From the NCBI GenBank assembly GCA_965287045.1, contig OZ336870.1, forward strand, positions 132,680,001 through 132,744,000: a DNA stretch of 64,000 bases, written 5' to 3'. The stretch comes from Carcharhinus amblyrhynchos. Its lineage: Eukaryota. Of the stretch, positions 15,188-47,044 are shown one piece after another; position 1 is the first letter of the stretch, and every line of letters starts with the position of its first letter. The notes under the pieces are model-generated. The model saw only the letters and a list, made by a program, of their open reading frames with translations, made no database searches and was not told the origin of the DNA. A program made the position numbers and the translations under genes.

Positions 15188-15653
15188 ATTGCTATTGAAA
15201 GGGTACAGAGGAGATTTACAAGGATGTTGCCTGGACTGGGAGGCATGCCTTATGAAGTTAGGTTGAGGGAACTGGGTCTCTTTTCCCTGGAGAGACGTAG
15301 GTTGAGAGGCGACCTGATAGAGGTTTATAAAATGTTGAGAGGAATAGATAGGGTGGATTCTCAGAGGCTATTTCCCCGGGTTGAAATGGTCGCAACGAGA
15401 GGACACAGGTTTAAGGTGCGGGGAGGAAAGTACAGAAGTGATGTTAGGGGTAAGTTTTTCACTCAGAGGGCGGTGAGTGAATGGAATCGGCTGCCGTCAG
15501 TGGTGGTGGAGGCGAACTCGCTGGGGTCTTTTAAAAGACTTCTGGATGAGTATATGGGGTTTTATGGGATTGGGGGTTATAGATAGGTGTTGATGTGATC
15601 GGCGCAACTCGTGGGCCGAAGGGCCTGTTTGTGCTGTAGTGTTCTATGTTCTA
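15188..15653 (+). mobile_element. CR1 LINE 3' end, young
   Basis: Open 120-aa ORF2 C-terminus, CpGs retained, 3' hairpin gggccgaagggcctg and (gttctat)n tail. Confidence 0.95.
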
Positions 15654-18459
15654 AATTATGTAAATGTCTAATTTTATTTTTTAGCTATCATTCTTTAGTG
15701 TTGGTGGTTGAAGGAAAACCTGTCTGCTTCTTTAGGCCATGGGATCTTTTATGTCCATCAGAAAAAATGGACAGTTCAACAACAACTTATCCCTGAAGAT
15801 GGCTCAAGTCTTGAAGTAGGTCTTGAGCATGTCCAGCTTAGCCAAACTAAGATTTAAATGAACTTTTTTAAGTTTATTTCTGAAAATGCTTCATTTTATT
15901 ATTAAATGGATTTTAATTGAGTTTTGCTGAGTTATTTACATCATAAGTTATGATTCAAAAATGAGCAATGAATGTTAAACATTAAAAATAAGTTGTGTAA
16001 AAATCAGTATTAATAAGTGTAAATAATTGTTTATTTGTGTAGCTACTTTTTTGATAGCAGCTTTTGTTTTTTTTTTGAATTGTTCAAATTTGAAGACTTT
16101 CTACATATACATATGTTAACTGGTGTGACTGCACGTACACGTGATATGACTGTGTTGACTGGGACATTCACTCATGCTCATAAGTAGGTGGTCCATCATA
16201 AAACAATTGTAAATTAATCAAAAAGTAGTGCATGATTTAAAGTTCTTTGGATAATAATTTACTGATTTTGTTTTTAGCATAGTATTTCTGTAATATTTTA
16301 ACATTCTAGTGTGTCCAAACCAGCACTGGTTTCTGGGAGATACTGCTGTGCAGCATATTGAATCAGGAGTTGATATCTAGTTAATGACTGCTATCAATCA
16401 GAAGTAAATTACATACATTTATAAAGCCAAACCTTGCACAAAAGGCTTAGACACTAAACATAATATACCTCGTTTCATCATTGACTTTCAAGCAGAGACT
16501 AGTATTTATGACTCTGTTATTTTTTGTGATGAAATAAAAACTAGCAATTTGAGGTCTGTTTTGGTGGAGCACCATGAAATTTGTAGCTATTCAGCATTTA
16601 TAAAGATCATATTGTCAAGAAGTAAATGGACAACATGAGCTTTCTGTCAAGATTACTCTTGAGTGGGGCATCTTGTTGTGGGAGAACTAATTACACAAAT
16701 AGTGTATAAATGAACACTGCAGATTCCTTTTGTGATTTTAATTGTTGTTATCTTGAAGAATGGCATCACATAATTCTGTCAAAAACTGTCAAGGATGGAT
16801 GAGAAATTAATAATTTATTGGCTTAAAAATATATTTAGCACACAAAGTAATGGAACGATTGATAGCTAGAGAGGTTAACACATTTTACAGGCTTTCATTA
16901 GCTTTTCACTATCATATGTTGTTTGTGGCAGTGTGTGAAATAAGCTTTGTAAGAAACCTAGGTCTTGAGAACTAATTACTTCTGCCGATTGCCACACTGA
17001 TGAATAGACCTTCATTGTATCTTTCCCCAGAAGACTGGGTGCAGTCTATGATTCACGCCTGGATCTCAGTAGATATTTGATAATAATTTTAATAGATGAA
17101 TGTTGGAAGCCAGGATGATGAAGTGCCTGTTCGAGCACTGCAGCTATCGCAGCCAAACACATAACAGTCTGTCGTATGTGACTAAAATCGAGTAATGGAC
17201 CTTGCGTTCACATTTTTTAGAGGTAGCAGTTTTAAATAAAAAAGAAATGGTATTTCAGATTACAATTGATTTTTGGTGCACTATTTGTTATTTTCTGAAC
17301 TTCAACATTGTCTTCATTGCATAAATAAAAAGAGGATGGAGGGCGCACATATTTGATAAATACTTAACACATTTTCTTATAGCTGATCATTATGTGTAGG
17401 AGACTTTACTATGGTTTTAAGCCCATATTAGTGAATTAGCAACGTTATGATTTAATGGTATAATTATGTTGATGAAGCTGTAGACATAATTCAGTCACTG
17501 CCGGGAAATGCAGAATACTGATACACAAAATTATGCACTTCTTACTGAATGCTCGTACTTGTTCAGATTGTATTTCCTAAGTGAATTGTTTTACACCAGA
17601 GGCGTCTCAGGTAGTAGATTAGAAATAATTCTTCTCTTCGTGTTGTTATTTGTGTATCCTACTACAAATAATGTCTAAAGCTTGGTGGTTGAATTACTGC
17701 TTTAATACTGCTGTTTTTTCATCCATAATGCAACATTTCTGCATTTTCTATTTAGAAATAGCTATGTTGCTTATAAAATTCCAGTAAGTTAGAATAAAAA
17801 AAATCAGTGTTGTATTGAAACTGAGAAATGTTGCCTTCCACTGAATAAAAAGGTTTATCTTGCATGTAACAAATCTTCCTGTGTTGTTTTTTGGGAAGTT
17901 TTTAAACAAAGCTCCAAATGAAAGAGGGAATTCTTCAGGCTGTGTCGGAGAGCATTCTTTCAATTTGACATGAACAGATAAAAAGATTAGTGTTACCTTT
18001 TTATTGTATTTTGCTGAATAAAATTAGGTGTGCTTGACATTTTGCCTCCTAAAATATAAAGAAAATAATCTAATGTCATTTATTTTAAATATATTACCTT
18101 GTCTTTATGTAGCAATGGGTCTTTAAAATACCAGTAAAAGAAAAGAGATGCATTTTCTTGTATAACTCTATGCCTCGGGGGCTAAATGTAATGAATATTT
18201 TAAGAGATTATTTTAATTAAATTTCTGCACGTCTAAATAGAGTAATATTTTATTATCTCTCATATATGTGCATTACAGTACTGTTCATTAAAGTTAACAC
18301 TTTCTGGACTGAGAATGCAAGGAGTGATTTACTGACCTTGTGCGAAAACACACAAATTGGGAAGAAAAATGATGAAGGGGTAGACTTTGATTAATATAGG
18401 TAATGCTATACCATATTTATAATGGCTTTTTCCCTATTCTGGTTTATAAACGCAGTCAC

Positions 18460-23142: not shown

Positions 23143-24070
23143 AGTCATAGAGGTTTACAGCATGGAAGCAGGTTCTTCAGCCCAACTTGTCCATGCTGCC
23201 CTTTGTTTTCAAAAGCCCTAAACATGTACCCCTAGATCTCTTTGTTCTGTAACTCTCCCCAATGCCCTACCATTAAGTAAGTCCTGCCCTGATTCAATCT
23301 ACCAAAATGCATCATCTCGCATTTGTCTAAATTAAATTCCACCTGCCATTCGTCAACCCACTGGCCCAATTGATCAAGATCCTGTTGCAATTGGAGATAA
23401 TTTTCTTCACTGTCCACTATGCCACAATTTAGTCTCATCTGCAAACTTACTAACTATGCCTCCTAGATTCTCATCCAAATCATTAATATAAATAATAAAT
23501 AACAGTGGACCCAGCATTGATCCCTGAGGCACACTGCTGGTCACAGGCCTCCAGTTTGAAAAAGTCTCTGCAACCACAACTTCTGTTGTGAAGCCAATGT
23601 TGTATCCATTTAGATACCTCACCCTGAATCCCATGAGATTTAGCCGTATGCAACAAACTGCCATGCGGTACCTTGTCAAAGGCCTTGCTAAAGTCATGTA
23701 GACAACATCAACTGCACTGTCGTCGTCTGCCTTCTTGGTTACCTCTTCAAAAAACTCAGTCAAATTTGTGAGACATGATTTTCCACTCACAAAGCCATGC
23801 TGACTGTCCTTAATCAGTCCTTGTGACCCTAAATGCCTGTCGATCCTGTCTCTCAAAATACCTTGCAACAATTCATCCACCACAGATGTAAAGCTCACTG
23901 GCCTGTAGTTCCCAGGCTTTTCCCTGCAATCCTTTTTAAATAAAGGCACAACATCTGCCACTCTCCAATCTTCAGGCACTTCACTCGTGACTATCGATGA
24001 TTCAAATATCTCAGCTAGGGGAGCCTGCAATTTTCTCCCTAGCCTCCCACAATGTCCTGGGATACACTTC
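23143..24070 (-). mobile_element. CR1 LINE RT fragment with internal deletion and 3' tail
   Basis: [15 protein letters not shown]...PGNYRPVS...[14 protein letters not shown]...[12 protein letters not shown]...FADETKL. Confidence 0.93.
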
Positions 24071-27000
24071 ATTCTAATCAAATCACTAATCTGATCTAAT
24101 CGCTTCTTTCTAACTAACCAGTGTTGCACATACTTAGTTTTCACATTTTTATTTGCATGTTTTTTTTAAATTGAATTTTTAAAGCTTTTCGTGAAAATAA
24201 CGTCTTCTTTTGTTGAAAGTTATAAAATGTCAACATTTTAATTAAATTTCTGTTCTGTACATCATATATCCATTTTCCATTATGCCCTTTGTCCAATCCC
24301 CGATATTCTCATGCTTCACACTGCTTACTCACTAACTGAACTATCCTTTTATCCCTATTACTGGGTATTACTCCCCTTCCAAATAATTACCCTCAAATGT
24401 TCAATGACTTAAATGCCCAAATTCTCAGTTCCCTGCAGTTCTTACCACATACCACCTGACTTCTTCAAATAATTACTGTACCCCACACTTATCCAATCCT
24501 TGGTTATTCAGTGCCTCTTCACTTATCTCGCATCATTATTTTCCCCAAGCTCTGGTTTCGTCAGCTTCCACATGTTTCCATACTCTCCAAGTTCTTTACA
24601 AATTCAGCATCCATTATCCAGTTTGTCTGCTGATTTATTGAGAGTTGTGCCATGGAAAATCCACTTTCATATGAAAGTTTATTTTGACTTCCAGTGAGCA
24701 ATGCCATGGAAAAACAACTATTATAAATTATTATTGTGTACAGATCTCTCAGATTGTCCAGTGCAAAATCCTGCATTGCAGTTTTCAAAAAACAAAGTTG
24801 CTCACTTTTAACATACAAGATACTAGAACCGTAATGATTGTAGGTTCTTAATACACTTTCCCACAAGCCAAACAAGGATTTTTGACCTCCTTTCCAAGTA
24901 GCACATTTACTCGACCAAATGCTCTCCCGGCATCCTAAAACTGATGAGCAAATTCCAATCTGTTTCTTTTTCATAAAACTTTCATTAAATTTTGACTTGA
25001 GCAGAATAACATATTGTGCAGAACTTTGTCACTTCAATTTTTTTTATAGTGTCATTGAACTTGCCATGAGAAATGCCACAGGTAATTTAATGCACACTGC
25101 CGATCCCCGTGACATTAGTCAATATTGAAAGTTTATTTTTTAAATTTCTGTTCTGAAATTTCTTTTGCTCATCTTTTTCCTGTCTGTCTTTGAATTTTCA
25201 CTAGCCCTTCAACATTCAGAAAAATAATCAAGCATTCTCTTTGTGATAAATTCATTTAAATTTGTTGCAAACTAGTTTGAGTTATTGTGGCATTGTTTCT
25301 ATTTTCAGCAAATTTGCAGTGATATCATCATTAAATATTATTTTAGCTTGCCTCACTCCTGGATATTTTTCAAATATTGAAACTCTAAATGATCATAACC
25401 ACAAATTATAATCATTATTTTACTCACTACATTTCCTCTAAACTTATTGTATATCCAGGATGTCATACACAATATAATTCATTACTGTGATGTCACACTC
25501 TCTCATCTTAATACTGGATCTAATAACAGGTCAGATTTAATATGCTTTAGTATTATTATTAATGGAAATGGGACATTAGAGAATGAGACCTAATGATGAT
25601 TCCTGATGAACTATGTCCTGACTTTTGTTTTTGGGAGATGTAGGTAAAATGTTCAACTTTAAAATATGATTTTTTTTTTGGTTTCATTAATTGGATGTTT
25701 TTTCTTTGAAAACTAATATATTTGTTGAAAATATGCTTTGATTTATTATTGTTACATGTATTAGTAAACAATGAAAAGTACTGTTCACTATATTGCGGAC
25801 TATACAGACAAAGCATACCATACATAGAGAATGAAAGGAGAGAGTGGAGAATGTAGTGTTACAGTCATAGTTAGGGTGTAAAGAAAAATCAACTTAATAC
25901 AAGGTTGGTCCATTCAAAAGCCTGATGGCAGCAAGGAAGAAGCTGTTTTTGAGTCAGTTGGCATGTGATCTCAGACTTCTGTATCTTTTTCCCAACAGAA
26001 GAAGGTGCAAGAGAGCATGCCTGGGGTGCGTGGGATCCTTGATTATGATGGCTGCTTTTTCAAGGCAGCAGGAAGTGTACACAATGTCAGTGGATGGGGT
26101 GGCTGATTTGAGTGATGGACTGGATTGAGTGAGGACATGAATTCTGATTTAGTTTGATCAATATTTATTTCTGGTTCAATGGCTACATCAGCTTGCTTAA
26201 TGACACTAAAGACATTGAAACACTTTTTTCTTAAATAGTAGCTAGCCTGTGGTGGTTGGAAGTACTTATAATATTCCAATTGCTATATAGTCTTACCAAA
26301 GAACAAATTATTACAATTTAGGGTTTTGCAATTTTTTTACATGCCAACTACAAAGTTCATTTCTAAAGCTTTCATTGGATGGAATATTTGAGTTGCTTTT
26401 AACATAGAAAAAGTGGAAAGTTTCACAGAAATGTAATTAAACAAAAATGGATCCAACCAAAAGAAGAGAATATTAGAATAAGTGACTAAAATGTTGACCA
26501 AAGATATGAGCCTTAAAAAGGACTTTAGAGGTTAGATAGGTTTAGAAATTAACTTTTTAAACTCAAAAAAACCAGAGTACTAAAAATGCATTCATAACTA
26601 GTGGGATGAATGAACTGGTGGCTATTAATAGGATCCAAGCTGGTTAGTGAAACAGAAACCAGTATGCATCTTTATATTTTTGATAGAATTTATTGACTTT
26701 GTTCAGTTGAATAGCTGACTTTCCACACATCCAATCTCTCAGCCATCCTCTTTTTACATGTGCTTCATGTACTTAATTAAACAATGCCCTTCACCTTTGT
26801 ATCCTAACAATGTAATTAACATGCATTAACAGTGGCTGCTTCAGAAAGAGGCCTGAATTAAGTGAGAGGTCTTGAGGGTTGAGGCATAGCAATATTTATA
26901 AAAAAATAGGATGAAGAATTTAAAGCTGAGTCATGGATGAACCCGAAGACAGTGTAGGTCACCGAGCATAGTAATGGATATTAAAACAGAAAATGCTGGA

Positions 27001-28192: not shown

Positions 28193-28733
28193 ATAAGAAC
28201 ATAAGAACATAAGAAATAGGAGCAGGAGTAGGCCATCCAGCCCTTCGAGCCTGCCCCGCCATTCAGTAAGATCATGGCTGATCTGTCGCTGCTCAGTTCC
28301 ACTTTCCCGCCCTCTCCCTATAACCCTTAATCCCCTCTCCTATCAAAAACCCATCAACCCGCGTCTTAAAAATATTTAGCGAGGCAGCCTCCACCACTTC
28401 AACGGGCAGAGAATTCCAGAGATTCACCACCCTTTGAGTGAAGAAGTTCCTCCTCAACTCTGTTCTAAACCGCCCCCCTTTTATCTTGAGGCTGTGCCCC
28501 CTAGTCCTACTGTCTTTTTTGAGCAGGAAGAGTCTCTCCACCTCTATCCTATCCATCCCATTCATCATCTTATACGTATCAGTGAGATCTCCCCTCATTC
28601 TTCTAAACTCTAACGAGTACAAGCCCAGTTTATTCAGCCTCTCCTCATAGCTCAACCCCCTCAACTCCGGTATCAGCCTAGTAAACCTCCCCTGCACTCC
28701 CTCCAAGGCTAAAATATCTTTGCGCAGGTGCGG
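28193..28733 (-). mobile_element. CR1 LINE 3' end, young subfamily, copy 2
   Basis: Nearly identical to 2281-2892 and 39377-40022. Confidence 0.95.
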
Positions 28734-28967
28734 ATATGTCTTTAACATAATTTAACATAAGAGTTATGTCTTGGCTTCACAACTGCTGCAACAATGTAAA
28801 GAACATTACTAAATGATAAATCAGAAATGTGGTCCCTATTTCCATAAAACTCTTTGAATACATTTTTGCCTTTGAGAAATCAGTCTTTTAGGTAGAAACA
28901 CTTTAATTAAATCATAAATAGCAGCTTTCATAATGTATACTCCTGTGGTAACTGACAAATATTGCCT

Positions 28968-29571: not shown

Positions 29572-29905
29572 TTCAATGAAGAGGCTGTCGAAGCAGCTGG
29601 AAAAGCTGTGGATCGTGATTGTACCGATGACTGCATCGCGACTGAAGCTGTCAGACGAACTGTGGGTCCTGGCTGAAGCTGAGGGCTGCGCTGTGACTGG
29701 AGTTGGAAATGTTGTAGAACGTGACTGAATTTGCGTCGTGACTGGTGCTGGGAACCCAGATGTATAAATACCCATACCTATTTGTGTTCAGAAAGAAGCC
29801 TGGTAAATCACTGTTAGGTGCCAGATCTCTCCCAAAAGCTTTTGTAATAAAACTACTGTACTTTGACTCACTCACAGTCTCATAGGTGTCCTTTTACCAT
29901 CAACA
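29572..29905 (+). repeat. ERV 5' LTR (recognisable part; 5' boundary uncertain)
   Basis: Aligns to 37561-37871; TATAAATA at 29763, AATAAA at 29846, ends in ...CA. Confidence 0.9.
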
Positions 29906-29908
29906 ATT

Positions 29909-29926
29909 TGGTGCCGAAACCCAGGA
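29909..29926 (+). promoter_or_regulatory. Primer-binding site, tRNA-Phe
   Basis: tggtgccgaaacccagga, 17/18 match to the complement of the vertebrate tRNA-Phe 3' end (TGGTGCCGAAACCCGGGA), 3 nt after the LTR. Confidence 0.9.
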
Positions 29927-30379
29927 TTCTGTTTGCGGGTCCAGTTGAATGGCCACAACTGGGGCACTGGAATAAAATATTGAACTTAATAGTGTGAGTC
30001 AAACTACAGTGGATGATCATCTGTAATGAGAGACTGTGAGAGTGAAAGACGTCTGAACTAAAAATATACAGACAAGGAGGCATTAACAGCCTTAGATCGG
30101 TTGTTAAGAGGGGAAATCCCCCATGCGAAGGTCAGGAGTTGAAGTGGCTGTATAGACTGGAGAAAGAGATGCCTGGAATGTGATGTTCAGACGTGAGTAA
30201 GAAAGAGACTGTCTGAGTGATTGCCGGAGTAGAAGGAAAAGCCGGCTTGATAGTGTAAGCTTACTAGTGTAAATGGTGGTACGGAGGGATCTGATCACCT
30301 CTGACAGGTATCACCGGACTCCGATAAGAGCAACCTAGGAAGGGGAGAGCGGGAAGGGAGAATAGAAGACTCCAGGTGG

Positions 30380-31694
30380 TGAGTATAAGCTTAGCTGTAT
30401 TATATCGGGATCACAAGGACAGTGGGTACCCCCGGGATCCCGGATTTATGAATGTATGACTGAGAGGGACAGATTCATTACACAGATGAGAAAAAGGGGC
30501 TGAGACTCATCTCACCTGTTAGACCAATAACGAGAATGGTTGAAAAAAGAAAAGAAAGACAGAACTAAGAAAATTGGAGTTCTTAGTTCACCAATTGGCC
30601 AGATTAATTGAACAAGTCTCAGCCTTGGGTAAGAAATGGGCTGATGACAAAGCAAAAATCAAAATGTTGGAATCACGCAATAGAGAACTAGAAAAGAGAA
30701 ACCAAATTTTAGAGGACCCCCAGCTGAGGATCTTTGCCTCCCTGTGGGTCAGCCTTAAAACCCATGGCACCCGTAGGAGACTTCGACCCGATGAGGAGGA
30801 GGTCTGATCTCGCTCCCATAACTCGGGGCGGGACATTATAGAATCCCACTGCCCGATACAAACTCTTTACCCCAGGAGAAAGACAACAAGTTTTGGCATC
30901 CCTGGGAAGGCTTCAGCCCCGGAGTAACAACAGCAAATTTTGGGCAGAACTGGACACCATTTGGGTTGGACACCAGTTACACTTGCAGGATATACACCAG
31001 TTGGTACAGGCTGTTTGTCCAAAGGACAAGTGGAGACTAATGGGTGATGGAGCGGGCCAGAATAACACCGCCGACCAAGCTCAGTTAGATTACCGAGACG
31101 GAAGGTGGACGTATGCGATAGAGGCAAATGCCAAGATCGAGGCAATGGTGGAACCGTTTAATTGCTTTAAGACGGAAATCCAACGAGTCTTGGGCAATGC
31201 ACCAACCAACTGGTCCAGAATTACCAATACTAAACAACAAAGGGGTGAAGGAGTCTCCGAATTTGGGGAGCGACTCTTTAAAGTATATCAAGAATGTTCG
31301 GGAATGCCCGAACAAATAGAGCCTTTTTACAAGCATTTAAAGATGGGCTGTCGCCAGCTCCCCCAAAAAATCATTAAAATGGGAGTTCTTAGTACCCAGA
31401 ACTATGATGAATTCGTGGAATGGGCTTCTGGGATTAAGGACCAGATGATAAATAATACCCAAGAATAAAGCAGAAGCATGTACTCTTAACTAATGGGATC
31501 AAGCCTAAGGGGACGTCATAATTGTGGGAAGCCAGGACATTTCACCCTGGACTGTAGGGCCCCAAAGTGGGGGTAAGAGGAAAATGTTTACATGCCAATT
31601 TTGCAAGAAGGATGGCCACACAGAGGCCACTTGTTGGAGCAAATATAGATGACCTAGTCAGGCTTCCCCCACCATCATGGAAGGGGTAAACTGA
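30380..31694 (+). pseudogene. gag: ERV gag (disrupted; start approximate)
   Basis: MHR-like KQQRGEGVSEFGERL; zinc knuckles (R/C)HNCGKPGHFTLDC and CQFCKKDGHTEATC; ends GGG GTA AAC TGA. Confidence 0.85.
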
Positions 31695-32060
31695 AAGGGA
31701 CAGCCCCCGCATGTTTGGGTAAGAAGGAGGGTAGAATCTATGTGCCTGCACTAGTAGTAACGGGCTGACAATGTGAAATGCTGGTGGACACAGGAGCCTC
31801 CATGTCTATCACTGACCTACCTTTACCCATCACTAATAAAATGATCTATGTAAGTGGAATTAACAGGTGGAAGACTCCTGCCTACGTAAGCGAAACTGTA
31901 GAAATTAATAACCTGTACATAACTATGCGATTTTATCTTTGTAAAAATAATGAGGGAACTATTATGAGAGATGACCTGATGAAGGAATACAAAGTCTTCA
32001 TAGATTGTGGGAAGGGCAAATTGATTTGACTCCGCCCTGACGGGAGAAAAGACAGGGTAG
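31688..32060 (+). pseudogene. pro: ERV aspartic protease
   Basis: MLVDTGAS active site; later IMRDDL corresponds to the ILGRD motif. Confidence 0.88.
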
Positions 32061-35000
32061 GAACATATGTAAACCATCTGCAATAGGACACGACTGGCAG
32101 TTAGAAGGTAATGGATTTGGCACCATTTGTGCCTCAGTTCCAGGGGTCTGGGCAAAAACTAAACTAGATACTGGGCTAATTAAAATGGACCCCATCTTAG
32201 TGGAAGGCTTGGAGCGTAAACTTCACCGACCATATCTGATTAAGTCCGAAGCCAAGAGGGCGGATGAAGAAATCGTGAAGGAATTGGTGAAAAAAGGGAT
32301 CCTGCGGGAGACTACTAGTACCACTAACTCACTAACTTGGCCGGTGTCCAAACTGGATGGGAGTTACCAATTAACCATTGATTAAATAAAGTAACTCCTA
32401 AACTAATCCCAGCTGCACCACTGTCCTAAACAGATTGTCACCATCCCATGAAATTTTTATGGTATTAGACATTGCCAGTGGTTTTTGGTCCATCCCTTTG
32501 GATTTTAATTCACAGGATAAATTTGCTTTCACAGTAGGTGATAAGCAGTATACATGGACTAGGCTCCCTCAGGGATTCCATAACAGCCCAGCCATATTCC
32601 ACCGGGTAATGAGTTAGATACTGGAACAAGTGGAGCTCCCGGACGGGAGTACAATTTTACAGTACATAGATGACTTCTTGATAGCTTCTGAAACTAAAGC
32701 AGAACATCAGACGTCACTATACTCGGTCTTGAAGCACTTGGAAGATCAAGGACTAAAGGCAAACCCAAAAAAGGCCCAAATAAGAAAACCACAAGTATTA
32801 TATTTGGGACACTTAATATCCAGAGGGATCAAGAAAATGCCCGTAGACAGGAAAACGGCGATGCAACAAATGCCAAAGGCAGTAACTGAACGAGGAGTGA
32901 GTAAGGTTTTGGGATTGTTTAATTACAGCCGCAACTTCATACCAGAATATGAAAAACTAGTTGAGCTAATCCAAAGGCTGTTAAAAGGGGGGAAACCTGC
33001 TTTGGAAACTGTGGATCAGAACAGGAAGAAGCATATAGTAACCTAAAGGTAGGATTAATGTTGGCCCCATGACTTGTGTTACCAGACGCTAGTAAAGATT
33101 TTCATATCTATTGTAACAATGAAGGAGGGTTCTATTCAGCAATAGTAACCCAAACCCATAACGTGGAATAATAACCCAGCTGGTGGGTTATTATGCCACA
33201 GTGGAGGGCCCCATAGTAACCCGGATGTGTAGCCGCACTGGATTGTGCAGCATGGGCAGTAAAAGTCAGCAAACCCATTGTAATGACAGGAAATAAAGTC
33301 TTGCACACCAAACATACCTTAGTGGAAATGTTAAATGCAGGAAAGTTATGGTCTGTCTCAAATATAAGAGCGAAGTGGGAGGCAGTACTACTTTCCCCCT
33401 TTAAGTCTATCACCATCGTACAAGACGGGAGAGAACCCTGCCGAAGGAATGTTAGGTGAAGGAAAACCACACACATGCAGCAATGTAGACGAGGAGATAG
33501 AGGAAAATAAAATAAAGCATGTGCCTTTGGAGGCACCAGAGGAGACCATGGTTGTGGATGGTCACAGAATTATGTAGATTGGTCACTGCGAATGGGATGG
33601 GCGGTGGTAAAACACAGACTTGCATGTGGTCCGAGCCGGAAGGATAGAGGGAGGTATGTCAGCACAAGTGGCAGAGCTAGTGACCTTGATCCAGGCTTTT
33701 ACTGAGGCAGCAGGGAGAAAGGTCAACATTTACAGCAACAGTAGATATACATTTGGAATTGTGCATGACTATATGACTGTTTGGGGAAGAAGGGGATTTG
33801 TTACAAATGGAGGCACTCCAGTCAAGCATGGACAGATAATGGAAGCCTTATTGGATGCCAGTGAGCTCCCATTGGAAGCAGCGGTATTGTAAGTAAAGGC
33901 ACACCAAAAAGAACCAGATAAGCAAAGCCGTGAATGGTATATTTTTAAGGGAAATCGGGCAGCCAACAAAGCGGCACGATCAGCTTTAGAAATGGGAGAA
34001 GTGCAGGCTGTGTCAGCTGCCTCGGTTTAAGTTGAACCCCCGATAGACATCTCGCAGCTACATGCTGACACACCTGAAGAAGAACACGCAAGGTGGAAAG
34101 CACAAGGAGCTATGCCTGATGAAAAGGGCGTATGGAGACTAAATGTTTTAGCACCAGAATGTGTCCAGCACGCTTGATGTGGTTACGTCATGAAGTGGCT
34201 CATGTGGGAAGGGATACCATGCCGACCAGTATAGGAAAGGAGTGGTGGTGGAAAGGAATGGGATGGGACATTGCACGATATTGTCATTGGTGTGTAACTT
34301 GTGCCCAGTATAACCCAGGGAGCCTGTAAAAATCAGGATCAGGTACCAGCCTCGCCCTAAGGATCCCTGGGAACATCTACAAATTGACTTTACAGGACCA
34401 TTTCCTCAGTCACACGGGAGAACCTACTGCTTGGTGGTAACTGATCAAATCACCAGATGGGTAGAGGCGTTCCCGACTAAAATTGTTCAGCCACTATGGT
34501 GGCGTGAGTATTAGCTGAGGAAGGTGGGGGGGCGGTACCATTACAAATAGACTCTGATCAAGGCACACATTTCACGGGGAGGGAGTAAAAACCATTTGTC
34601 AACTGATGGGGATAAAACAGAAATTTCACATACCTTACTACCCTCAAAGTTCGGGAATGATAGAGTGTATGAATAGAACAAAGGCCATGCAGGATTCAGG
34701 AAAAAGATGAACTGAGGTGTTGTCCGCCATATCAATGAAACTCAGAGTCACTACGAATCGAACCACTGGGCTGACACCATATGAACTAATGATCAGAAGG
34801 GCTAAGCAACTGCCCGAGTCCATTATTACTGGTGGGGCAGATGTAGGCCCATTACGGGATAGGATTAGATGATATGTTTTAGAACTAAGCGCCCAACTGA
34901 AGGATATGCAAAAAACAGTAAGGGAACACCAAGTAGTGAAGGATAAGCAAAATGAGCTGGAACAGATCCCTGAGGTACCCCCGGTGGGCAGCAAAGTTAT

Positions 35001-35150
35001 GGTGAAGATGTTACCTGGAAAGCCTGGGTTTGCCCCCAAATGGAATGGCCCTTATGAAGTCATAATTAGTGGCGATACTTGTGCTTGCGAAGATATGCAA
35101 GGCAGGGGCATCTGGAAACATTGGATTCAGTTGAAAGAATATACCAGTGC
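32060..35150 (+). pseudogene. pol: ERV pol: RT, tether, RNase H, integrase (frameshifted, with stops)
   Basis: LDIASGFWSIPL...YTWTRLPQGFHNSP, QYIDD (~32663), RNase H SAQVAELVTL...VNIYSNSRY, integrase HxxxHxG...CxxCxxC, WEHLQIDF, and the GPY/F module PKWNGPYEV. Confidence 0.93.
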
Positions 35151-36218
35151 CAATTTCAAAAAAAATTATGTAATGTGCTCAATTCATAGATACGTGAGAT
35201 GGTTGACCTCTAAGCAAGTCGATTGGGTTCGTGGGAAGTTGCGCATGGGCCTTATAGCTTTTGAACCATTGTATAACAGTCGCACAGGTTATAATTAAGT
35301 GATAAAATGATTCTTTTGCTGCTTCTCATGACCCTTGCCCTGACAGTTACAGAGGGAAAATATAGGTGGAATTGTGTAGACTTGGGGACAGAGCATCACA
35401 AGCATCGATGTAACAATGATCCTATCTATTGTAACCTTCCGACACATGGAATAGGCCCCTGGGAGGTAACCCGTAGGAACCGCTTCTTGGAATTCCTTAA
35501 CCATGTTGTCAACTCTGTTAGAGGGGCGTAGTGTTTGGCGTCTCCCATGCAATGTAACTTGGTGTAGCTGGAATTGGAAATTCCAGCTACATTTAGCTAC
35601 CAGAATGGACCTCTGCTCTGCAACAGGGTTCGGAGGGGGGGGGATGAGTACATCAACACAAGATTTGGCTGATCCAAGCGATCATTATACCAACCCTTTA
35701 AAATCAGACCCCATCACGTAAACGCTTTTGTGTATATGTCTAACTTGTATGCATTACAGTCAAATTGGAATAAGTGGTGGGTCTGCTCACACACTCCCAC
35801 ATATGGAGACAAGAGGGGAAGTACTTTATTCCCTATCCCTTTGTCAACTTTGGAAATGGTAGAATGGATTTTAAATCAGAATGGAACCCAGGACGGGACA
35901 AGGAAAGTGACATTTAAAACCCCATCAGGCAGCACAATGCAAGGTACCTTCAATGTCAGTGACATTGATGCTTTTTTGGGATTAGGCAGAAGGTGCACTC
36001 TATCAGCTTTTAAGAACCATTACTAGCCTAGCTATAATAGATCAGACTCTCCTCCCCACTTCGTTGTGAAAAACCAACAAAGGGGATCTATCTGCTTGGT
36101 AAGAAACGGAACCTTACCTGTTGGCCATAGCTGCTGTACTCAGCAGGTTAATGTCACCAATGATGCCTGGACTTTGGAGCAACAACTTAGAATCCATTCT
36201 CTCTCTTCCTCCCCCCCC

Positions 36219-36219
36219 C

Positions 36220-36261
<42 letters not shown>
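36219..36261. repeat. (CA)n microsatellite inside env SU
   Basis: CA run preceded by poly-C. Confidence 0.97.
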
Positions 36262-36262
<1 letters not shown>

Positions 36263-37088
36263 CCGCTGTCCCGGTCAACCGCTCCTCACTGCATATAATG
36301 GTTCCTATTTTGTTTGTGGAAACAATACCTACCCATGGCTTCCATAGGATTGGGCAGGATCATGTTTTTTAGTACATGTGGTGCCCTGTATTCACCATTA
36401 CACTGACTTACGGGACCACACTGAAATACACCTGCTTAGAGCTAAGCGAGCCATTAGTGAGACAGCACAGTTCTTCATGATAGCCTACCCACCTTATGGG
36501 TCAGCAAAAGCGGCTCAGGAATGTATACATATGGCCTTGACCTTAGAGAGGATTACAAATGAAACCAGAATCAGGTTCGAGGAAATAAGCACCGCCTCTT
36601 CTGAGGTATCAGCCGAGGTTGTAACTATCCGGACTGTTGCTTTACAGGACCAATTGGCACTCGCTTATGTGTTAGCTTCCCAGGGAGGAACGTGCGCTAT
36701 AATTGGATCTGAATGCTGCACGTATACTCCAGACGATTCGGAAAATGTAACTCATTTGGCAGATTGTATCAAATGAGTAGCGAAGACAACACAAGTTGAA
36801 GGAAGCCAATATCTTAATTATAATCCTCCGGGATGGCTGGGGCAATGGTTCGGGTCGTGAGGATCATACTTGATGTGTGGGTTGATTATATTAATTGTCA
36901 TTGTTATCGCTTGTTGTGTTTGTATGGCATTATTGAATGCTTGTTGCAAAATGGTAACAGCCCAAATTACGCTGAGTGCAAGTATACAGGCAGAAAGGGC
37001 ACACTTCTTACGAAGGAGATAGGCCCATATGCTGGTAACATTTGGTTCTGAATTGGTCATGGCGCCATGCTTGGACCTGGCCATGACC

Positions 37089-37100
37089 AAAAGGGGGAAC
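37089..37100 (+). promoter_or_regulatory. Polypurine tract
   Basis: aaaagggggaac immediately before the TG at 37101. Confidence 0.85.
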
Positions 37101-37871
37101 TGAAGAAGGGAAAGGGTTAATGAATTTGTACCTAGCATAAGTCACAAACATAAGCCTTCCTCATGGCTGATCTCCTCAAACATATACTGCTTCTGGCATC
37201 AATATAAATTATTTATTCATGTTTTCCTTACTTGTTCATGTCTTTCATCCTTTAACTTGGATTTCCATAAAGATGAATAGTTAAATGTCAATGTTATTTT
37301 ACAGACATTGCAAACCTTACCTGTTTATAGAACATATAGAACATAGAACATTACAGTGCAGAACAGGCCCTTCGGCCCACGATGTTGTGCTGACCAGTTA
37401 AAAAACAATGACCCTCTAACCTAAACCAATCCCTTTTCATCCATAAACCTAACCACGGATCTACTAGCTAAACTTAGTTAAACAACTGCAGATGGTAAAG
37501 TGCGATAACAGCTATTTGACAGGAGGACTCCTGCTGGGAAGCCGTGACCACACAAGTTACTTCAATGAAGAAGCTGCCAGAAAAGCTGTGGATCGTGATT
37601 GTATCGATGACTGCATCGTCACTGAAGCTGCCAGACGAACTGTGGGTCCTGGTTGAAGCTGGGGACTGTATCGTGACTGGAGTTGGAAGCGTTGTGGATC
37701 CTGACTGGTGCTGGGAACCATGGTGTATATATAAATACCCACACTTATTTGTGTTCAGTGAGAAGCCTAGTAAACTGCTGTAAGGTGCCAGATCTCTCCC
37801 AAAAGATTTTGTAATAAAACTTTGTACTTTGACTCACTAACAGCCTCAGAGGTGTCCTTTTACTTAGAACA
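37101..37871 (+). repeat. ERV 3' LTR (TG...CA), with a CR1/SINE tail fragment at ~37328-37400
   Basis: Starts TG after the PPT; TATAAATA at 37730, AATAAA at 37813; ends ...gaaCA. Confidence 0.88.
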
Positions 37872-39059: not shown

Positions 39060-42000
39060 AGAAAACTGTTCATTCTCATTTGTTCCTATTTTGTGCACAT
39101 AATCTTTGCATGTTTAGGTCTTCTATGTGTGAGTTGTTGCTGGTTTTCACTTGTCCACTCATTATTGGGGCAACCTTGCCTCTCTGGGGAATGACTGCTA
39201 GTGTGGTGAGTGTTGCTGCTATGATGATCGTTACTGCCTTTGTTGGGGAATGTTTGAACTCTGGGAATGATGGCCATTCGGTTCCCTGTGCAGTTGGTAA
39301 AATCACATGTTCCTCATTAGTTGCGTGATGTGAAGGAGTAGTGCAAAAATCTGTGGTTATGACGATAACTGGTAGTTAAGAACATAAGAACATAAGAAAT
39401 AGGAGCAGGAGTAGGCCATCTAGCCCTTCGAGCCTGCCCCGCCATTCAATAAGATCATGGCTGATCTGTTGTGGCTCAGTTCCACTTTCCCGCCCTCTCC
39501 CCATAACCCTTAATCCCCTCTCTTATCAAGAACCCATCAACCCGCTTCTTAAAAATATTTAGCGAGGCAGCCTCCACCACTTCAACGGGCAGAGAATTCC
39601 AGAGATTCACCACCCTTTGAGTGAAGAAGTTCCTCCTCAACTCCGTTCTAAACCGCCTCCCCTTTATCTTGAGGCTGTGCCCCCTAGTCCTACTGTCTTT
39701 TTTGAGCGGGAAGAGTCTCTCCACCTCTATCCTATCCATCCCATTCATCATCTTATACGTCTCAATGAGATCTCCCCTCATTCTTCTAAACTCTAACGAG
39801 TACAAGCCTAGTTTATTCAGCCTCTCCTCATAGCTCAATCCCCTCAACTCCGGTATCAGCCTAGTAAACCTCCTCTGCACTCCCTCCAGGGCCAAAATAT
39901 CCTTGCGCAGGTGCGGCGCCCAAAACTGCACACAGTACTCCAGCTGCGGCCTCACCAATGCCCTATACAGCTGCAGCAAGACCTCCCTACTTTTATATTC
40001 AATCCCCCTCGCTATTTTCACCATGTACTATTCTACATGGGTTCCAAGCTGCCAAGCAGACTGACTTTTGTTGAGAGTGTTGACTGTCTGGCTCTCCAGC
40101 TCTCAGCTTTGGCAATATTGTGGCAGTTTTATCAAAGTGTAATTTGGCTTTCTGTTGGTTTCACTTTGATTTTGTCACTCACTCCTGGTACCACTTCTGG
40201 CTTCAGTAGTCTTTTACCTTTGGAAGAGCGATTTGCGTCTGGCATAGCATCACTAAACTGGACTAGAATAGGTGTGTTTCTCATTGTACAATTGCCTTGT
40301 ACTCATGTCTGTGCTGGATTTCTTCAAATTTTTATGATCTCTTTACAATTTTCACTGTGGCCTCAATCTTTCCGTTTAACTGGGGATAGTGTGGAGATGC
40401 TTGACTTTGGCACTCGTGAACTGAGTACCGTTGATGTTCATCACAATATCAAGAATGCCATAATGATTTAAGTGTGCTTTCAGGCATTTTATGATCTTGC
40501 TGGTAGTCGTTGACATCAGCTTATCCAGCTCTCAGCAGTCTGAATACTGGTCAACTATGATGGGACAATCAGTTCCAGTGAGAGTGAAGAGGTCCACTTC
40601 AAACTTCATCCATGGTCTGTATAGGATGTCATGGGATGCTGTTTTAACTTGCTTAGTTTGATATTCATTACAACCACTGCACTGCCTGATATTATCCTTT
40701 ATCTCACTGCTCGCGTTTGGCCTATAGAGCATTTCTCCTGCCTTCCTCAGACTAGACCCAATTCTTGGTGGCTAGCATGAGTGCATTTTAGCTTTTTTCT
40801 CATCTCCTTAGGGATTATGACTCTAATTCCTTTAAACAAGATGCCATCTTGGACAGTCACTTCATACTCTTATTGCAATAGGTGTGTTCTTGATAGTGTC
40901 AGGCCATCCTTCCATCGCTACTACTTGCAGTACTTGAATGGTTGCATCTCACTGCGTAGTTTGCTTGATCAGAGCAAAATGCTTGTCTGTCAGACTTAAT
41001 GACTCAGCTGGGTTGATGACTTCCAGATTCAACAAGAAGCAACAGCATAGCATGCTCTGAAAAGTTTCACACTCTGCATTAGCAGCAAAAGATTTCTTCA
41101 AAGGGAGTGCAGCTCTTGACAGCATGTTGCGATGTACATCTATGTATTACCCCTGCTTGTACTTCTCTTCCAGTTGCTAACTTAGCAAACAAAGCAACAC
41201 CTTTGCAGTCGCTTTGGAGCAGGTAGAAGGGGTTTGCGAAAAATATTTTGAAATGGCTTTTGGTCTGACCCTACTGTTACTTTGTCTCTCCCAACAGGTA
41301 CTGATTAAAATGCTCACAAGCAAAGACAAAAGCCAGGCACCACTCCTCAGCTATCTAGCATCGTACAGCTTGTGTTAATGTTGTGCGTGCAAATGTAATT
41401 GGTTGTCCTTGCTGGGTGAGTGTTGCTCCAAGTCCTATTGCATCAGCATTACACTGCAGGGTGATTTCATCATTAACATTATAGCATTTCAGCAGTGCTG
41501 TTGTCATTATTATTTGCTTTTTTGTCCTGGGCCCCAATTGAATATTCTTTTGCAGTTAGTTTGCATGGAGGTTCATACTCTTGAAAGAAGTTCAGAATTG
41601 CAGCAAATCAGCGTGCAACCAACAGTAATCTGTTGGTTACTGCTGTCATCTTCTCAGTATCAGGGCGCACTCCTTTCACTGTCAATACGTGATCTTGCTT
41701 GTCTTCAGTCATTGGTTGCAGCTTATTGAACTTCAGATTCATCTGGTAAGTGCTTTCAGTCTCACTAGACATGGTCTGAGATGGCTTTTTATATTGTATC
41801 TCCATATCCATAGATGAGTAGATAATTCAGAATTATTTACACCCTGGGAGGATCATTGACTATCTCCTCCTGTTGGTTTTGATACTCGTTGGAAACAGTA
41901 CTAATGCCAAATGGCCTGCACAACCGAAATGGTGTCCAGAACATAGCCAGGAAACTGATACTTTCATTCAGCTTCACTTTCCAGTATCCATCCTTTGCAT

Positions 42001-43771
42001 TGGAGTTGTAAAGACCTTTGCTGTGACAAGCTGCAGCAGAATTTCTTCAATGTTTGGCATAGTTTGTGAGACCTCTTCAAAACTTTTTACAGTTCCTTGG
42101 ATCTATGCACACACTCAGCTTGCCAGATTTTTTCAATGCAACCATGCTGCTAATCCAGTCTGTAGGAGTTGTCACCTTTCTTCATTATTCCCACCTTTTT
42201 CAAGTTCTTTTATCTTGTCTTTCAGGCTGCACTTGAGAACATGAGAATTCTTCTTGGAAGATGCTAAGTTGATCTTGTACTCTTGTACTTCAAGATAATA
42301 TCCATAAGGTAGCCATCCAGGAAAACATCTTTGTAATTTTTTAAAGATTTGTTCACAGTCAAAAGCTTTGTGAGGTGCATAGTACTGTAAACTACTTCTG
42401 GCATGTGGAGGGTTGCCAATCTAAGCTTTTGACTTATTTCAGCTAAGATGAGTGGATTTTGCTCAGCATTGACCAATTGGAATTGCGGATCTGACTTTTT
42501 TCCCATTGCACAGGGTCTTAGTTCGTCCTCTTGGGGCGAGCATCATTCCATCATATAGCCTCAATTTCAGCTTTGACGTCTTTTTATGGTTACCACCTTG
42601 AGCACTTTCATACAAGTCTACAAAGCATGTGATGTTGCACATAACATCAGTGTCAGTCTGACACTTCATATTAACTTGATGGTCTTCTGCAGGCATAGTA
42701 ATAGTCATGAACCAAGTTTTCCTTGAATTTTATGCCAGTTTGCTCTGGGATGTAGAGTGAATTATCCACCATCTTTCCAGTAACCATCCTTATAGGCTTA
42801 TTTTTCTTCTTTGCAGCAAAATACATGCGTGCAAAGTGATTCAGCTTCTTGCAGTTAGAGCACTGCTTTCCCCAGAATGGACATGTTTCCTTTTGTGTGG
42901 TGTCCCCCGTAATATTTAGATCCTATATCATAGCCTTGATCTTTCTGTGGGCCCTTCTGTAAATATTTCTTCCTTTTCTCAGTTGTCTTGCACTTACAAG
43001 GTCTGGATTGTCTGTCAACTTAAATCCTCACCATCTTGAGCATCTTCACACAGGTCTGCAAAGCACATGATGTTGCACGTTGCACCAGTGTTGATCTGAC
43101 ACTTCTTATTAACTTGATGGTCTTATGCAGTCATACTAATAGTCACAAATCACATTTTCCTTGAACTTTATGCCAACTTGTTCTGGGGTGTAGAGTGAAC
43201 CATCTGCCATCTCTATTGGCTTGTTTTTCTCCTTTGCAATAAGGAGACATCGCTAGTACTCCCATCAACACTCCAACTTATGAGTAACAACCTCAGAGCC
43301 TCTGCGCATATCAGTCGTTTTCTTGAGAATAAGGTTCTGTTTTGCTAGTAGACATGCTGTCATGTTGAGATCTCGTTCCTGAGATAATTCTAACTCTGAT
43401 CAGATCTTCCTTCAGTTGTTCAAACATTCAAGATTCAGCCAGACATCTCATTCAGTAATCACATATAGACCAATATTCTCCTCCTCTTCTTGAGCTATGG
43501 TGTTGAACACGTAGCATTCATAAGTAGCAATAAAAGGTTCAAATGGATTTCAAGGCCTTCACAATTTCACAAGACTGCCTTTTCTGTCCCTCCATGAAGC
43601 TAGGCTCTTTCTGTAACACTGATAACAGAATTGCTACTTTTAATTGTTCAGCTTTCACGTTAATTATGTGGCAATTTCATAGTTCTGCCATTGAAACTGG
43701 AAGAATTTCCAAGTCATTCTGAAGTCCTCCTTCATCTTTGTAACTACAGATATTGGAAAATTCAAAGCCAT
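39060..43771 (-). mobile_element. Ty3/Gypsy LTR retrotransposon internal region, heavily decayed
   Basis: gag start MALNFP...WKFFQFQWQNYEIA at 43771; protease CQ(T/I)(D/N)T; RNase H LQCNADAIGLGATLTQQGQPITFA; integrase CSGC and RPWMKFEVDLF..IVDQYS. LTRs not identified. Confidence 0.88.
39377..40022 (-). mobile_element. CR1 LINE 3' end, young subfamily, copy 3, nested in the Gypsy element
   Basis: Open 182-aa ORF2 C-terminus; (taagaaca)n tail; Gypsy sequence on both sides. Confidence 0.95.
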
Positions 43772-45999: not shown

Positions 46000-47044
46000 A
46001 TTAATGACAATACTCATAGGAGGCAAATTCCTATAAATGTTCCATCTCATTAATAGGGTAACTTAACTTAAAGATGATAAATAAGAATTCCAAGCTTATC
46101 ATTTTCTTCATGTCACCTGCAAAAGTTATTTTTTTCTTTAACATATGGTCTCTTTGCAGTTCTATCATATAAAATTTGGAGCCATCTTTGTTTACCATCT
46201 TTGAAAATGTTCTACAGTTTCTATATTATAGATTATATTAAAGAAAAAATGCAGGCCACAGACATGGTTTGCATTTTTGGCATATGTTAGTTCTTCTCTT
46301 GAAAGCTGTGACACGCGTCTGACTGTGAAAGCTATTATCTTGTAGTCCTAGTGATGCATCCTAACTTTCTATGAAACAGTATCATGGCCTAATCAACTTT
46401 TATATTTAATTATTTTGGGTTTATTTATTAAGGAATTAAGGGTTAGGGTGAGTGGGCAGGTAAGTGGAGCTGAGTCCATGCTAAGATCAGCCATGATTTT
46501 ATTGAATGGCAGAGCAGGCTTGAGGAGCCAGATGGCCTACTCCTGCTCCTAGTTCTTATGTTCTTATTCTAACATTTGGTCTGAAGTCCATCCTACTATG
46601 GGAACATGCCTTGAGAATGAAATGCGTAAACCAACAGGGTGTGATAACATCACTGACCCTTACTGCAAGGAAGCTGTAAATATTGGACATATGCCAGAGA
46701 CACAAATTAAGAGTTCAATGCTCATCAATAACATAACATTGTAACAGTAGGTCTGCCTTAAGAAGATGATGATTCAGTCCCTTGAGTGGATGTATGTATC
46801 AATACGTGACCCATCTCTAACTTTTTTTTCAATATACTGACATTACTTTGAGTATATTTCAAACCAGATGCAATCCAAGATATGTTGAAATATTTGACGA
46901 TTAAATGACAATACTCACAGGAGGCAAATTCCTATAAATGTTACATCTAATTAATGGGGTAACTTTAAAGATGACAAATGAGAATTCCAAGCTTATCATT
47001 TTCTTCATGTCACCTGCAAAAGTTATTGTTTTCTTTAACATATG
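46000..47044 (+). repeat. ~145-bp dispersed direct repeat (46000-46147 and 46900-47044)
   Basis: Both copies read atgacaatactca.aggaggcaaattcctataaatgtt...gaattccaagcttatcattttcttcatgtcacctgcaaaagttatt...ttaacatatg. Confidence 0.92.
46430..46568 (+). mobile_element. Short CR1 3' tail
   Basis: gatcagccatga...aatggcagagcaggcttgagg...ttcttatgttctta. Confidence 0.85.

Follow-up and report, generated by a model that had tools for sequence, protein, structure and literature searches.

Does the retroviral element between positions 29572 and 37871 of a 64,000-nucleotide stretch of the shark Carcharhinus amblyrhynchos represent a mosaic virus of an undescribed lineage? The stretch (assembly GCA_965287045.1, contig OZ336870.1, positions 132,680,001 to 132,744,000 of the forward strand) is called the window throughout. 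A sequence-only reading had assigned to the locus an endogenous retrovirus (ERV) with a tRNA-Phe primer binding site (PBS), two zinc knuckles, a frameshift at the gag-pro junction and a class-III-like reverse transcriptase (RT) combined with a gamma-type env. By comparison with other copies in the same genome and with published elements, we consider it quite probable that the element is what decay has left of a fixed provirus from a multi-copy family of class III type that is related to the whale shark element rh_ty_ERV4, and that ancestors of this family likely read through an in-frame UGA codon and likely spread by infection with a gamma-type envelope.

The Gag-Pro Junction

Further copies were recovered with a 601-base RT probe of the genome, which gave 233 candidates, 40 of them scored, and at least 42 matches at 77-89% besides the element itself. 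The loci retrieved comprise a set of 40 and a set of 30 for the junction. The junction survey covered 32 loci, of which 31 have a column at the gag stop and 28 a measurable distance from this stop to the DTG motif of the protease. The column reads TGA in 28 of the 31 copies, and TGT, TAA and AGA in one copy each. In 21 of 28 copies, stop and DTG are separated by a multiple of three (93 nt in 20 of them), and in 23 of 31 the reading frame is kept from the zinc knuckle to the stop. The window copy has 95 nt between stop and DTG, an offset that had been read as a frameshift junction and is explained by decay of this copy. Since most copies keep TGA and protease in one frame and no slippery heptamer is present at the junction in any of the 31, readthrough of UGA is the likely mechanism of Gag-Pol synthesis, as far as can be judged from sequence.

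The base following the stop is C in 19 of the 31 copies. The next codon is TGG in seven, CGG in six, CAG in five and CAA in five copies, accompanied by eight singletons, a spread that would be typical of methyl-CpG decay. UGA followed by CGG or CUA constitutes the type II readthrough context, to which UGACGG belongs (PMC13517186). TGA CGG is found in six of the 31 natural copies, and 12 more are one CpG-type transition away from it. As far as consulted, this review assigns UGACGG to alphaviruses and coltiviruses, and the sites given for aquatic retroviruses are UGAAGA, UGACGA and UGAAGU (PMC13517186).

Upstream of the gag stop, a segment of 90 bases (window positions 31602-31691 and their equivalents in the other copies) folds better than shuffled sequences, with a mean z of -1.5 and values below -2 in ten of 31 copies.

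Phylogenetic Position of Pol and Env

Separate trees were calculated for RT, integrase (IN) and the transmembrane subunit (TM) of Env. For the RT tree, 72 rows remained of 202 extracted RT rows after near-duplicates had been dropped, with references taken from viral contigs. SnRV, SSSV, Xen-1, MoMLV, REV, WDSV, foamy and loki rows were labelled by comparing their junctions, lengths or motifs with published descriptions. The rows labelled FeLV, KoRV, BaEV, RD114, GaLV, WEHV, ERV-S-like and class II presumably represent these groups, their names being assigned from lengths or motifs.

The RT of the element groups with proteins of Mustelus (100/99), Heterodontus (100/98) and, in an 11-row clade, Pimephales and Clupea (97/95); among named Pol proteins, that of Mustelus asterias comes closest. 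This clade lies outside classes I and II (100/99) and outside the loki rows (97/98), and the element is neither with MLV/REV nor in the foamy clade. An epsilon-like placement with WDSV, Xen-1 and SSSV was rejected by the approximately unbiased (AU) test (p=0.000168). SnRV is neither joined nor rejected, as the grouping is absent from the free RT tree and the forced join gave p=0.185. In the IN tree (49 rows), the element is grouped with class I (83/93) and SnRV is placed outside. The GPY/F motif of the integrase was considered as a class I marker and discarded as uninformative, because it is also present in SnRV and the loki rows.

Many NYNRIN-like matches had suggested a lokiretrovirus, a group defined by Wang and Han 2021 (PMC7947760). 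This candidate was rejected by the RT tree, in which the loki-type rows, recognized by a motif match to Loki-Aro, form a separate clade (100/100), and the env matches TLV_coat only, not the paramyxovirus-F-like type (PF00523). In the IN tree, the loki-type integrases group with a Latimeria protein (P0038; 97/90) whose RT groups near SnRV. This discordance is in line with the integrase swaps that Wang and Han report (PMC7947760).

In the TM tree (98 rows, bootstrap not settled), the element groups with envs of Pristis, Hypanus and Heterodontus (80/95 for 16 rows, 85/87 for ten rows) and with those of Aldrovandia and Esox, apart from MLV/REV and from SSSV/Xen-1. Of the named envs, the most similar ones belong to Pristis, Scyliorhinus, Hemitrygon and Heterodontus, the best being that of Pristis pectinata (53%). 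An env search among longer proteins gave no match. The RT and TM trees and the AU test agree with the sequence-only reading in keeping the element apart from the gamma, epsilon, foamy and loki groups and in setting a class-III-like RT beside a gamma-type env. Nesting of RT and TM inside a described family was seen in part only, the RT tree being without supported nesting with SnRV.

In a metagenome scan, herring-type relatives were detected, while the contigs of two protein relatives (P0123 and P0126) were not, nor was an unbroken shark relative found as DNA. A single-protein scan of viral contigs gave no match. The herring-type contigs (L021-L024, so called by their cluster names) fall into the same RT clade as the element and have open gag and pol genes, an in-frame TAG and one zinc knuckle; two of them, L021 and L022, carry an open gamma-type env. 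The cluster of a bird ERV Pol (P0049) has members filed as Klebsiella pneumoniae, which are probably host contamination of assemblies.

Subfamilies, Recombination and Primer tRNAs

Three subfamilies were compared: A, to which the window copy belongs, B and C. Between them, gag, protease, RT and env are under purifying selection. The ratio of nonsynonymous to synonymous substitutions (dN/dS) is 0.12-0.20 for env, 0.06-0.15 for gag and 0.04-0.05 for RT in comparison with subfamily C; for RT of A versus B it is 0.21, on seven differences. Private changes show a dN/dS of about 0.5 in all genes. The env was thus functional while the subfamilies diverged, and purifying selection on this gene suggests that the family spread by infection.

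The two halves of subfamily A have different histories. In comparison with B, dS is 0.50-0.56 in gag and protease and 0.02-0.04 in RT and env, and the 5' half of A is closer than that of B to the Phe-primed subfamily C. Of the nine bins before position 32280, eight are 73-81% identical to B and the remaining one 85%, and the values from 32280 to 37079 are 83-88%. The window's subfamily emerges as a recombinant within the family, its ancestry switching near the protease/RT boundary, and this is the real mosaic. Two other copies, L007 and L154, are sisters in the RT tree (100/99) and lie on opposite sides of the gag DNA tree, for which a rough bootstrap was used; they appear to reflect a further recombinant or gene conversion.

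A PBS could be read in 25 of 41 loci, 16 being devoid of the 5' end. Twelve copies have a Phe PBS, ten Ser(CGA), one Ser(AGA) and one Leu(CAG), and one is unassigned; each named type matches a tRNA gene of the same genome. The Ser(AGA), Leu(CAG) and unassigned PBS-like 18-mers stand just behind the 5' long terminal repeat (LTR) of single copies (L146, L147 and L152, respectively). Phe and Ser copies fall on opposite sides of a 100/100 branch in the gag tree. The Phe PBS had been regarded as a character of the element as such; it exists in the window copy and is a trait of a subfamily, the primers of sister copies being Ser(CGA), Ser(AGA) or Leu(CAG). One family has thus made use of at least four primer tRNAs. 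Primer variation within a lineage was already known, according to PMC6114882.

Fixation and Age of the Provirus

The locus is matched at about 97-99% by contigs from four runs, belonging to four other organisms and four studies. Three of these contigs bridge the junction of the flank and the 5' LTR, and three bridge the 3' junction. As the same locus with the same truncation is present in contigs of other organisms, the insertion and its 5' truncation predate the split of those organisms. The provirus is real, old, fixed and of a catalogued kind, and the shared insertion is usable as a phylogenetic marker.

The Kimura two-parameter (K2P) distance of LTR pairs is 0.09-0.14 in five copies and 0.13-0.14 in the window copy. 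An LTR-distance age of about 300 million years, obtained with a rate of 2.2e-10, was distrusted, because transitions make up 25 of the 35 differences and the rate itself was assumed (Han 2015, PMC4422223). The longest open frame in the first 20 copies has 349 codons. Three copies (L002, L003 and L012) share internal deletions (window-equivalent positions 31542-32270, and from 33130 on) and lack env; they are likely a non-autonomous derivative copied in trans.

Structure of the Provirus

On the plus strand of 29572..37871, the gene order is LTR remnant-PBS-gag-pro-pol-gamma-type env-polypurine tract-LTR. The order agrees with the sequence-only reading, the supposed completeness of the LTRs does not. 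Of the 5' LTR (29572..29905) only the 3' half is left, about 335 bp of a full length of roughly 640 bp, which aligns to 37561-37871; the first approximately 325 bp and the 5' copy of the target site are missing. The contigs that bridge its junction with the flank come from three other organisms. The 3' LTR (37101..37871), aligned to the 5' LTR of copy L002, carries a 134-bp high-copy repeat inserted at about 37326-37459, as revealed by this alignment and a depth spike. A piece related to this repeat is present at 15596-15656 of the window. The polypurine tract (37089..37100) was read directly and occupies the same place before the 3' LTR in L002, L009, L010, L016 and L019. A target-site duplication was not seen at the provirus ends. 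The PBS for tRNA-Phe(GAA) (29909..29926) is identical to the tRNA-Phe gene of the same genome at 17 of 18 positions.

All genes of the provirus are broken, and the window copy is likely inert today. The gag gene (30536..31694, start codon putative) is interrupted by stops and frame changes and ends with the TGA at 31692-31694; it shows 31.6% identity to the Gag part of a Heterodontus protein (P0007, E=7e-24). Two CCHC knuckles had been predicted in the 3' part of gag (31514..31634). The second (31593-31634) is intact, the first is damaged in the window copy and intact in sister copies, one of which (L009) gave a Pfam zf-CCHC match with E=2e-7. The protease (31695..32090, DTG at 31787) yielded a weak Pfam RVP match (E=0.028). 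The region of RT, tether and RNase H (32095..33990, RT motifs at 32465-32677) matches RVT_1 (E=9e-12) and RNase_H (E=1e-9), and RT_RNaseH in sister copy L014. Integrase (34130..35150) comprises HHCC, core and a GPY/F tail with GPY at 35047; in sister copy L018 it matches rve with E=8e-20. RT motifs, tether, RNase H and GPY/F tail are all located where they had been predicted, by motif reading and the RNase_H match. By tblastn against P0123 and P0126, pol is split into five or six stop-containing pieces that alternate in frame.

The env (35307..37022) forms one frame with internal stops and was found as a single tblastn piece against a Heptranchias env (P0217; 36% identity, seven stops); its copy in L007 matches TLV_coat (E=3e-13). 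The predicted RAKR (36438) and CX6CC (36693) were recovered, followed by a membrane span; the immunosuppressive domain (ISD) is present and decayed. The CXXC of the surface subunit (SU) is decayed in the window copy (position 35775) and reads CWVC in sister copies. Considering all copies, the family possesses the set that defines a gamma-type env: CXXC in SU, furin site, ISD, CX6CC and membrane span. A C-run and a (CA)n tract are located in the SU region (36205-36261), where alignments to sister copies break.

Rfam gave no match within the window. The sole other coding-looking frames of at least 150 codons are fragments of ORF2 of long interspersed nuclear elements (LINE) on the minus strand (336-1755, 2401-2892, 23410-24165, 28296-28751 and 39479-40027), with endonuclease (E=1e-12) and RT (E=2e-12) matches. 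Local duplications are located at 42592-43212 (438 bases apart) and 46003-47044 (about 900 bases apart).

Discussion

The four oddities that had set this element apart fare differently. The frameshift and the family-wide Phe PBS dissolve, two zinc knuckles are not unusual, and the combination of a class III pol with a gamma-type env has been published. What remains is the uncertain deep position, the UGA-CG context, the switching of primers and the recombinant inside the family. Two knuckles do not set an element apart from class I, contrary to what had been supposed, since Xen-1 has two and Jern 2005 (PMC1224870) reports two in epsilon viruses and HERV-H, and one in SnRV. The term undescribed lineage was an overstatement, as a similar element, rh_ty_ERV4 of the whale shark, is placed in the clade Huo block in S2 Fig of Xu 2018 (PMC6001957), between the SnRV and foamy tips. 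As printed, rh_ty_ERV4 shares with the family protease and RT motifs nearly letter for letter when read by eye, two knuckles (the end of one and the whole second in the printed start) and an in-frame TGA CGG before pro; between the motifs it has clearly diverged. ERV-SA.a-Ppe is similar by its description, an SnRV-related class III Pol with a gamma-type env (Chen et al., bioRxiv 10.1101/2021.11.23.469661); Ppe would stand for Pristis pectinata, and the likeness is by description only. The same authors report gamma-type envs in six cartilaginous fish, and an SnRV-related ERV with env was reported for the elephant shark (Han 2015, PMC4422223).

Other systems resemble the family in single traits. 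SnRV has an RT about 42% identical to that of a shark relative (P0001), an in-frame stop and GPY/F; it differs by its UAG stop, by a single knuckle, by the lack of a gamma-type TM match and by not being sister in the RT or IN trees. XtERV-S is described with a class III pol, a class I-like env, an in-frame TGA and a Ser PBS (PMC8278194; also PMC10536682). By contrast to the family, it is ERV-L-related, has a dUTPase-like segment and, in the available part of its description, no zinc knuckle (Yedavalli 2021, PMC8278194). Epsilon-like viruses share the UGA junction (SSSV and ZFERV), the two knuckles (Xen-1) and a gamma-type TM, but the RT grouping with SSSV/ZFERV/Xen-1 was rejected (p=0.0002) and their TM belongs to another clade. 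Foamy viruses are without zinc knuckles, and their RT forms a separate clade.

Active ancestors of the family would have produced Gag-Pol by decoding the in-frame UGA with a near-cognate tRNA, aided by the following C of the type II context. Env would have been translated from a spliced mRNA, with SU and TM linked by a disulphide bond, and infection by means of this gamma-type envelope probably spread the virus. Changes of the PBS could have become fixed when another tRNA primed reverse transcription, and template switching between co-packaged genomes may have given rise to the recombinant subfamily.

Several points weigh against this interpretation. The sequence that follows the stop showed no folding signal (mean z of -0.08 for the 31 decayed copies), and seven of 28 copies are out of phase 3' of the stop, five in the phase of the window copy, with L130 and L134 sharing one indel place. 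The kinship to rh_ty_ERV4 and ERV-SA.a-Ppe is based on motifs read by eye and a Pristis env match. The free RT tree does not join SnRV, and its deep nodes are unsupported (36/16, 35/16, 59/21). The dN/dS method ignores transition and CpG bias, and subfamily C consists of two copies. The -1 phase of the window copy and four others, together with the shared indel place, would be expected if a -1 ribosomal frameshift had connected gag with pro in the virus, or at any rate in the subfamily of the window copy. We find this hardly credible, for the two indels of the window copy lie at places not common to the six other out-of-phase copies, two copies of its own subfamily (L133 and L140) are in frame on both sides of the stop, and the 31 junctions are free of slippery heptamers. 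The whale shark relative is in frame here as well, as read by eye from the printed sequence. The env could have been acquired fairly recently in sharks, if a class III element without env captured one of gammaretrovirus type. Across aquatic ERVs, the trees of Pol and env disagree, making an env swap at some depth likely. A recent capture is nonetheless quite improbable, because the TM sits with shark, ray and teleost envs, among them those of Pristis, Hypanus and Heterodontus, away from the MLV/REV group, and because env has been under purifying selection across all three subfamilies and is thus older than these.

A third alternative concerns the placement of the family more than its mechanism. 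The element may belong to a shark-teleost lineage of its own, so far without a name, that is not SnRV-like and branches from the class I (gamma/epsilon) stem, with readthrough, two knuckles, GPY/F and gamma-type env as inherited old traits. This would be consistent with the position of SnRV outside the 59-row group containing the element in the RT tree (80/81), with the IN tree and with the herring-type relative of the same RT clade, which also has a readthrough junction and a gamma-type env. However, the 59-row group contains foamy viruses and class II as well, and the join with SnRV was not rejected. Furthermore, Xu 2018 shows the whale shark relative among the tips of clade Huo and claims strong support for the five clades (PMC6001957), the TM of the window is grouped apart from that of the herring-type relative, and ERV-L/S references are few in our trees. 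We regard this placement as possible but doubtful. Its extended form, a lineage on the gamma/epsilon stem that keeps the ancestral plan, uses an alphavirus-type UGA-CGG signal and has swapped primers at least three times in one genome, seems unlikely. If the placement on the class I stem were true, clade Huo would have to be divided, and the pairing of a class III pol with a class I env would amount to inheritance in this branch.

The locus demonstrates that decay of a single copy can mimic a frameshift. In our literature search, no description for shark elements was found of the UGA-CG context, of four primer tRNAs within a single family or of a recombinant subfamily that can be dated. A UGACGG site in a retrovirus would extend the known readthrough contexts slightly and in a testable way, and the family adds a well-sampled shark representative to a poorly described branch of the retroviruses.

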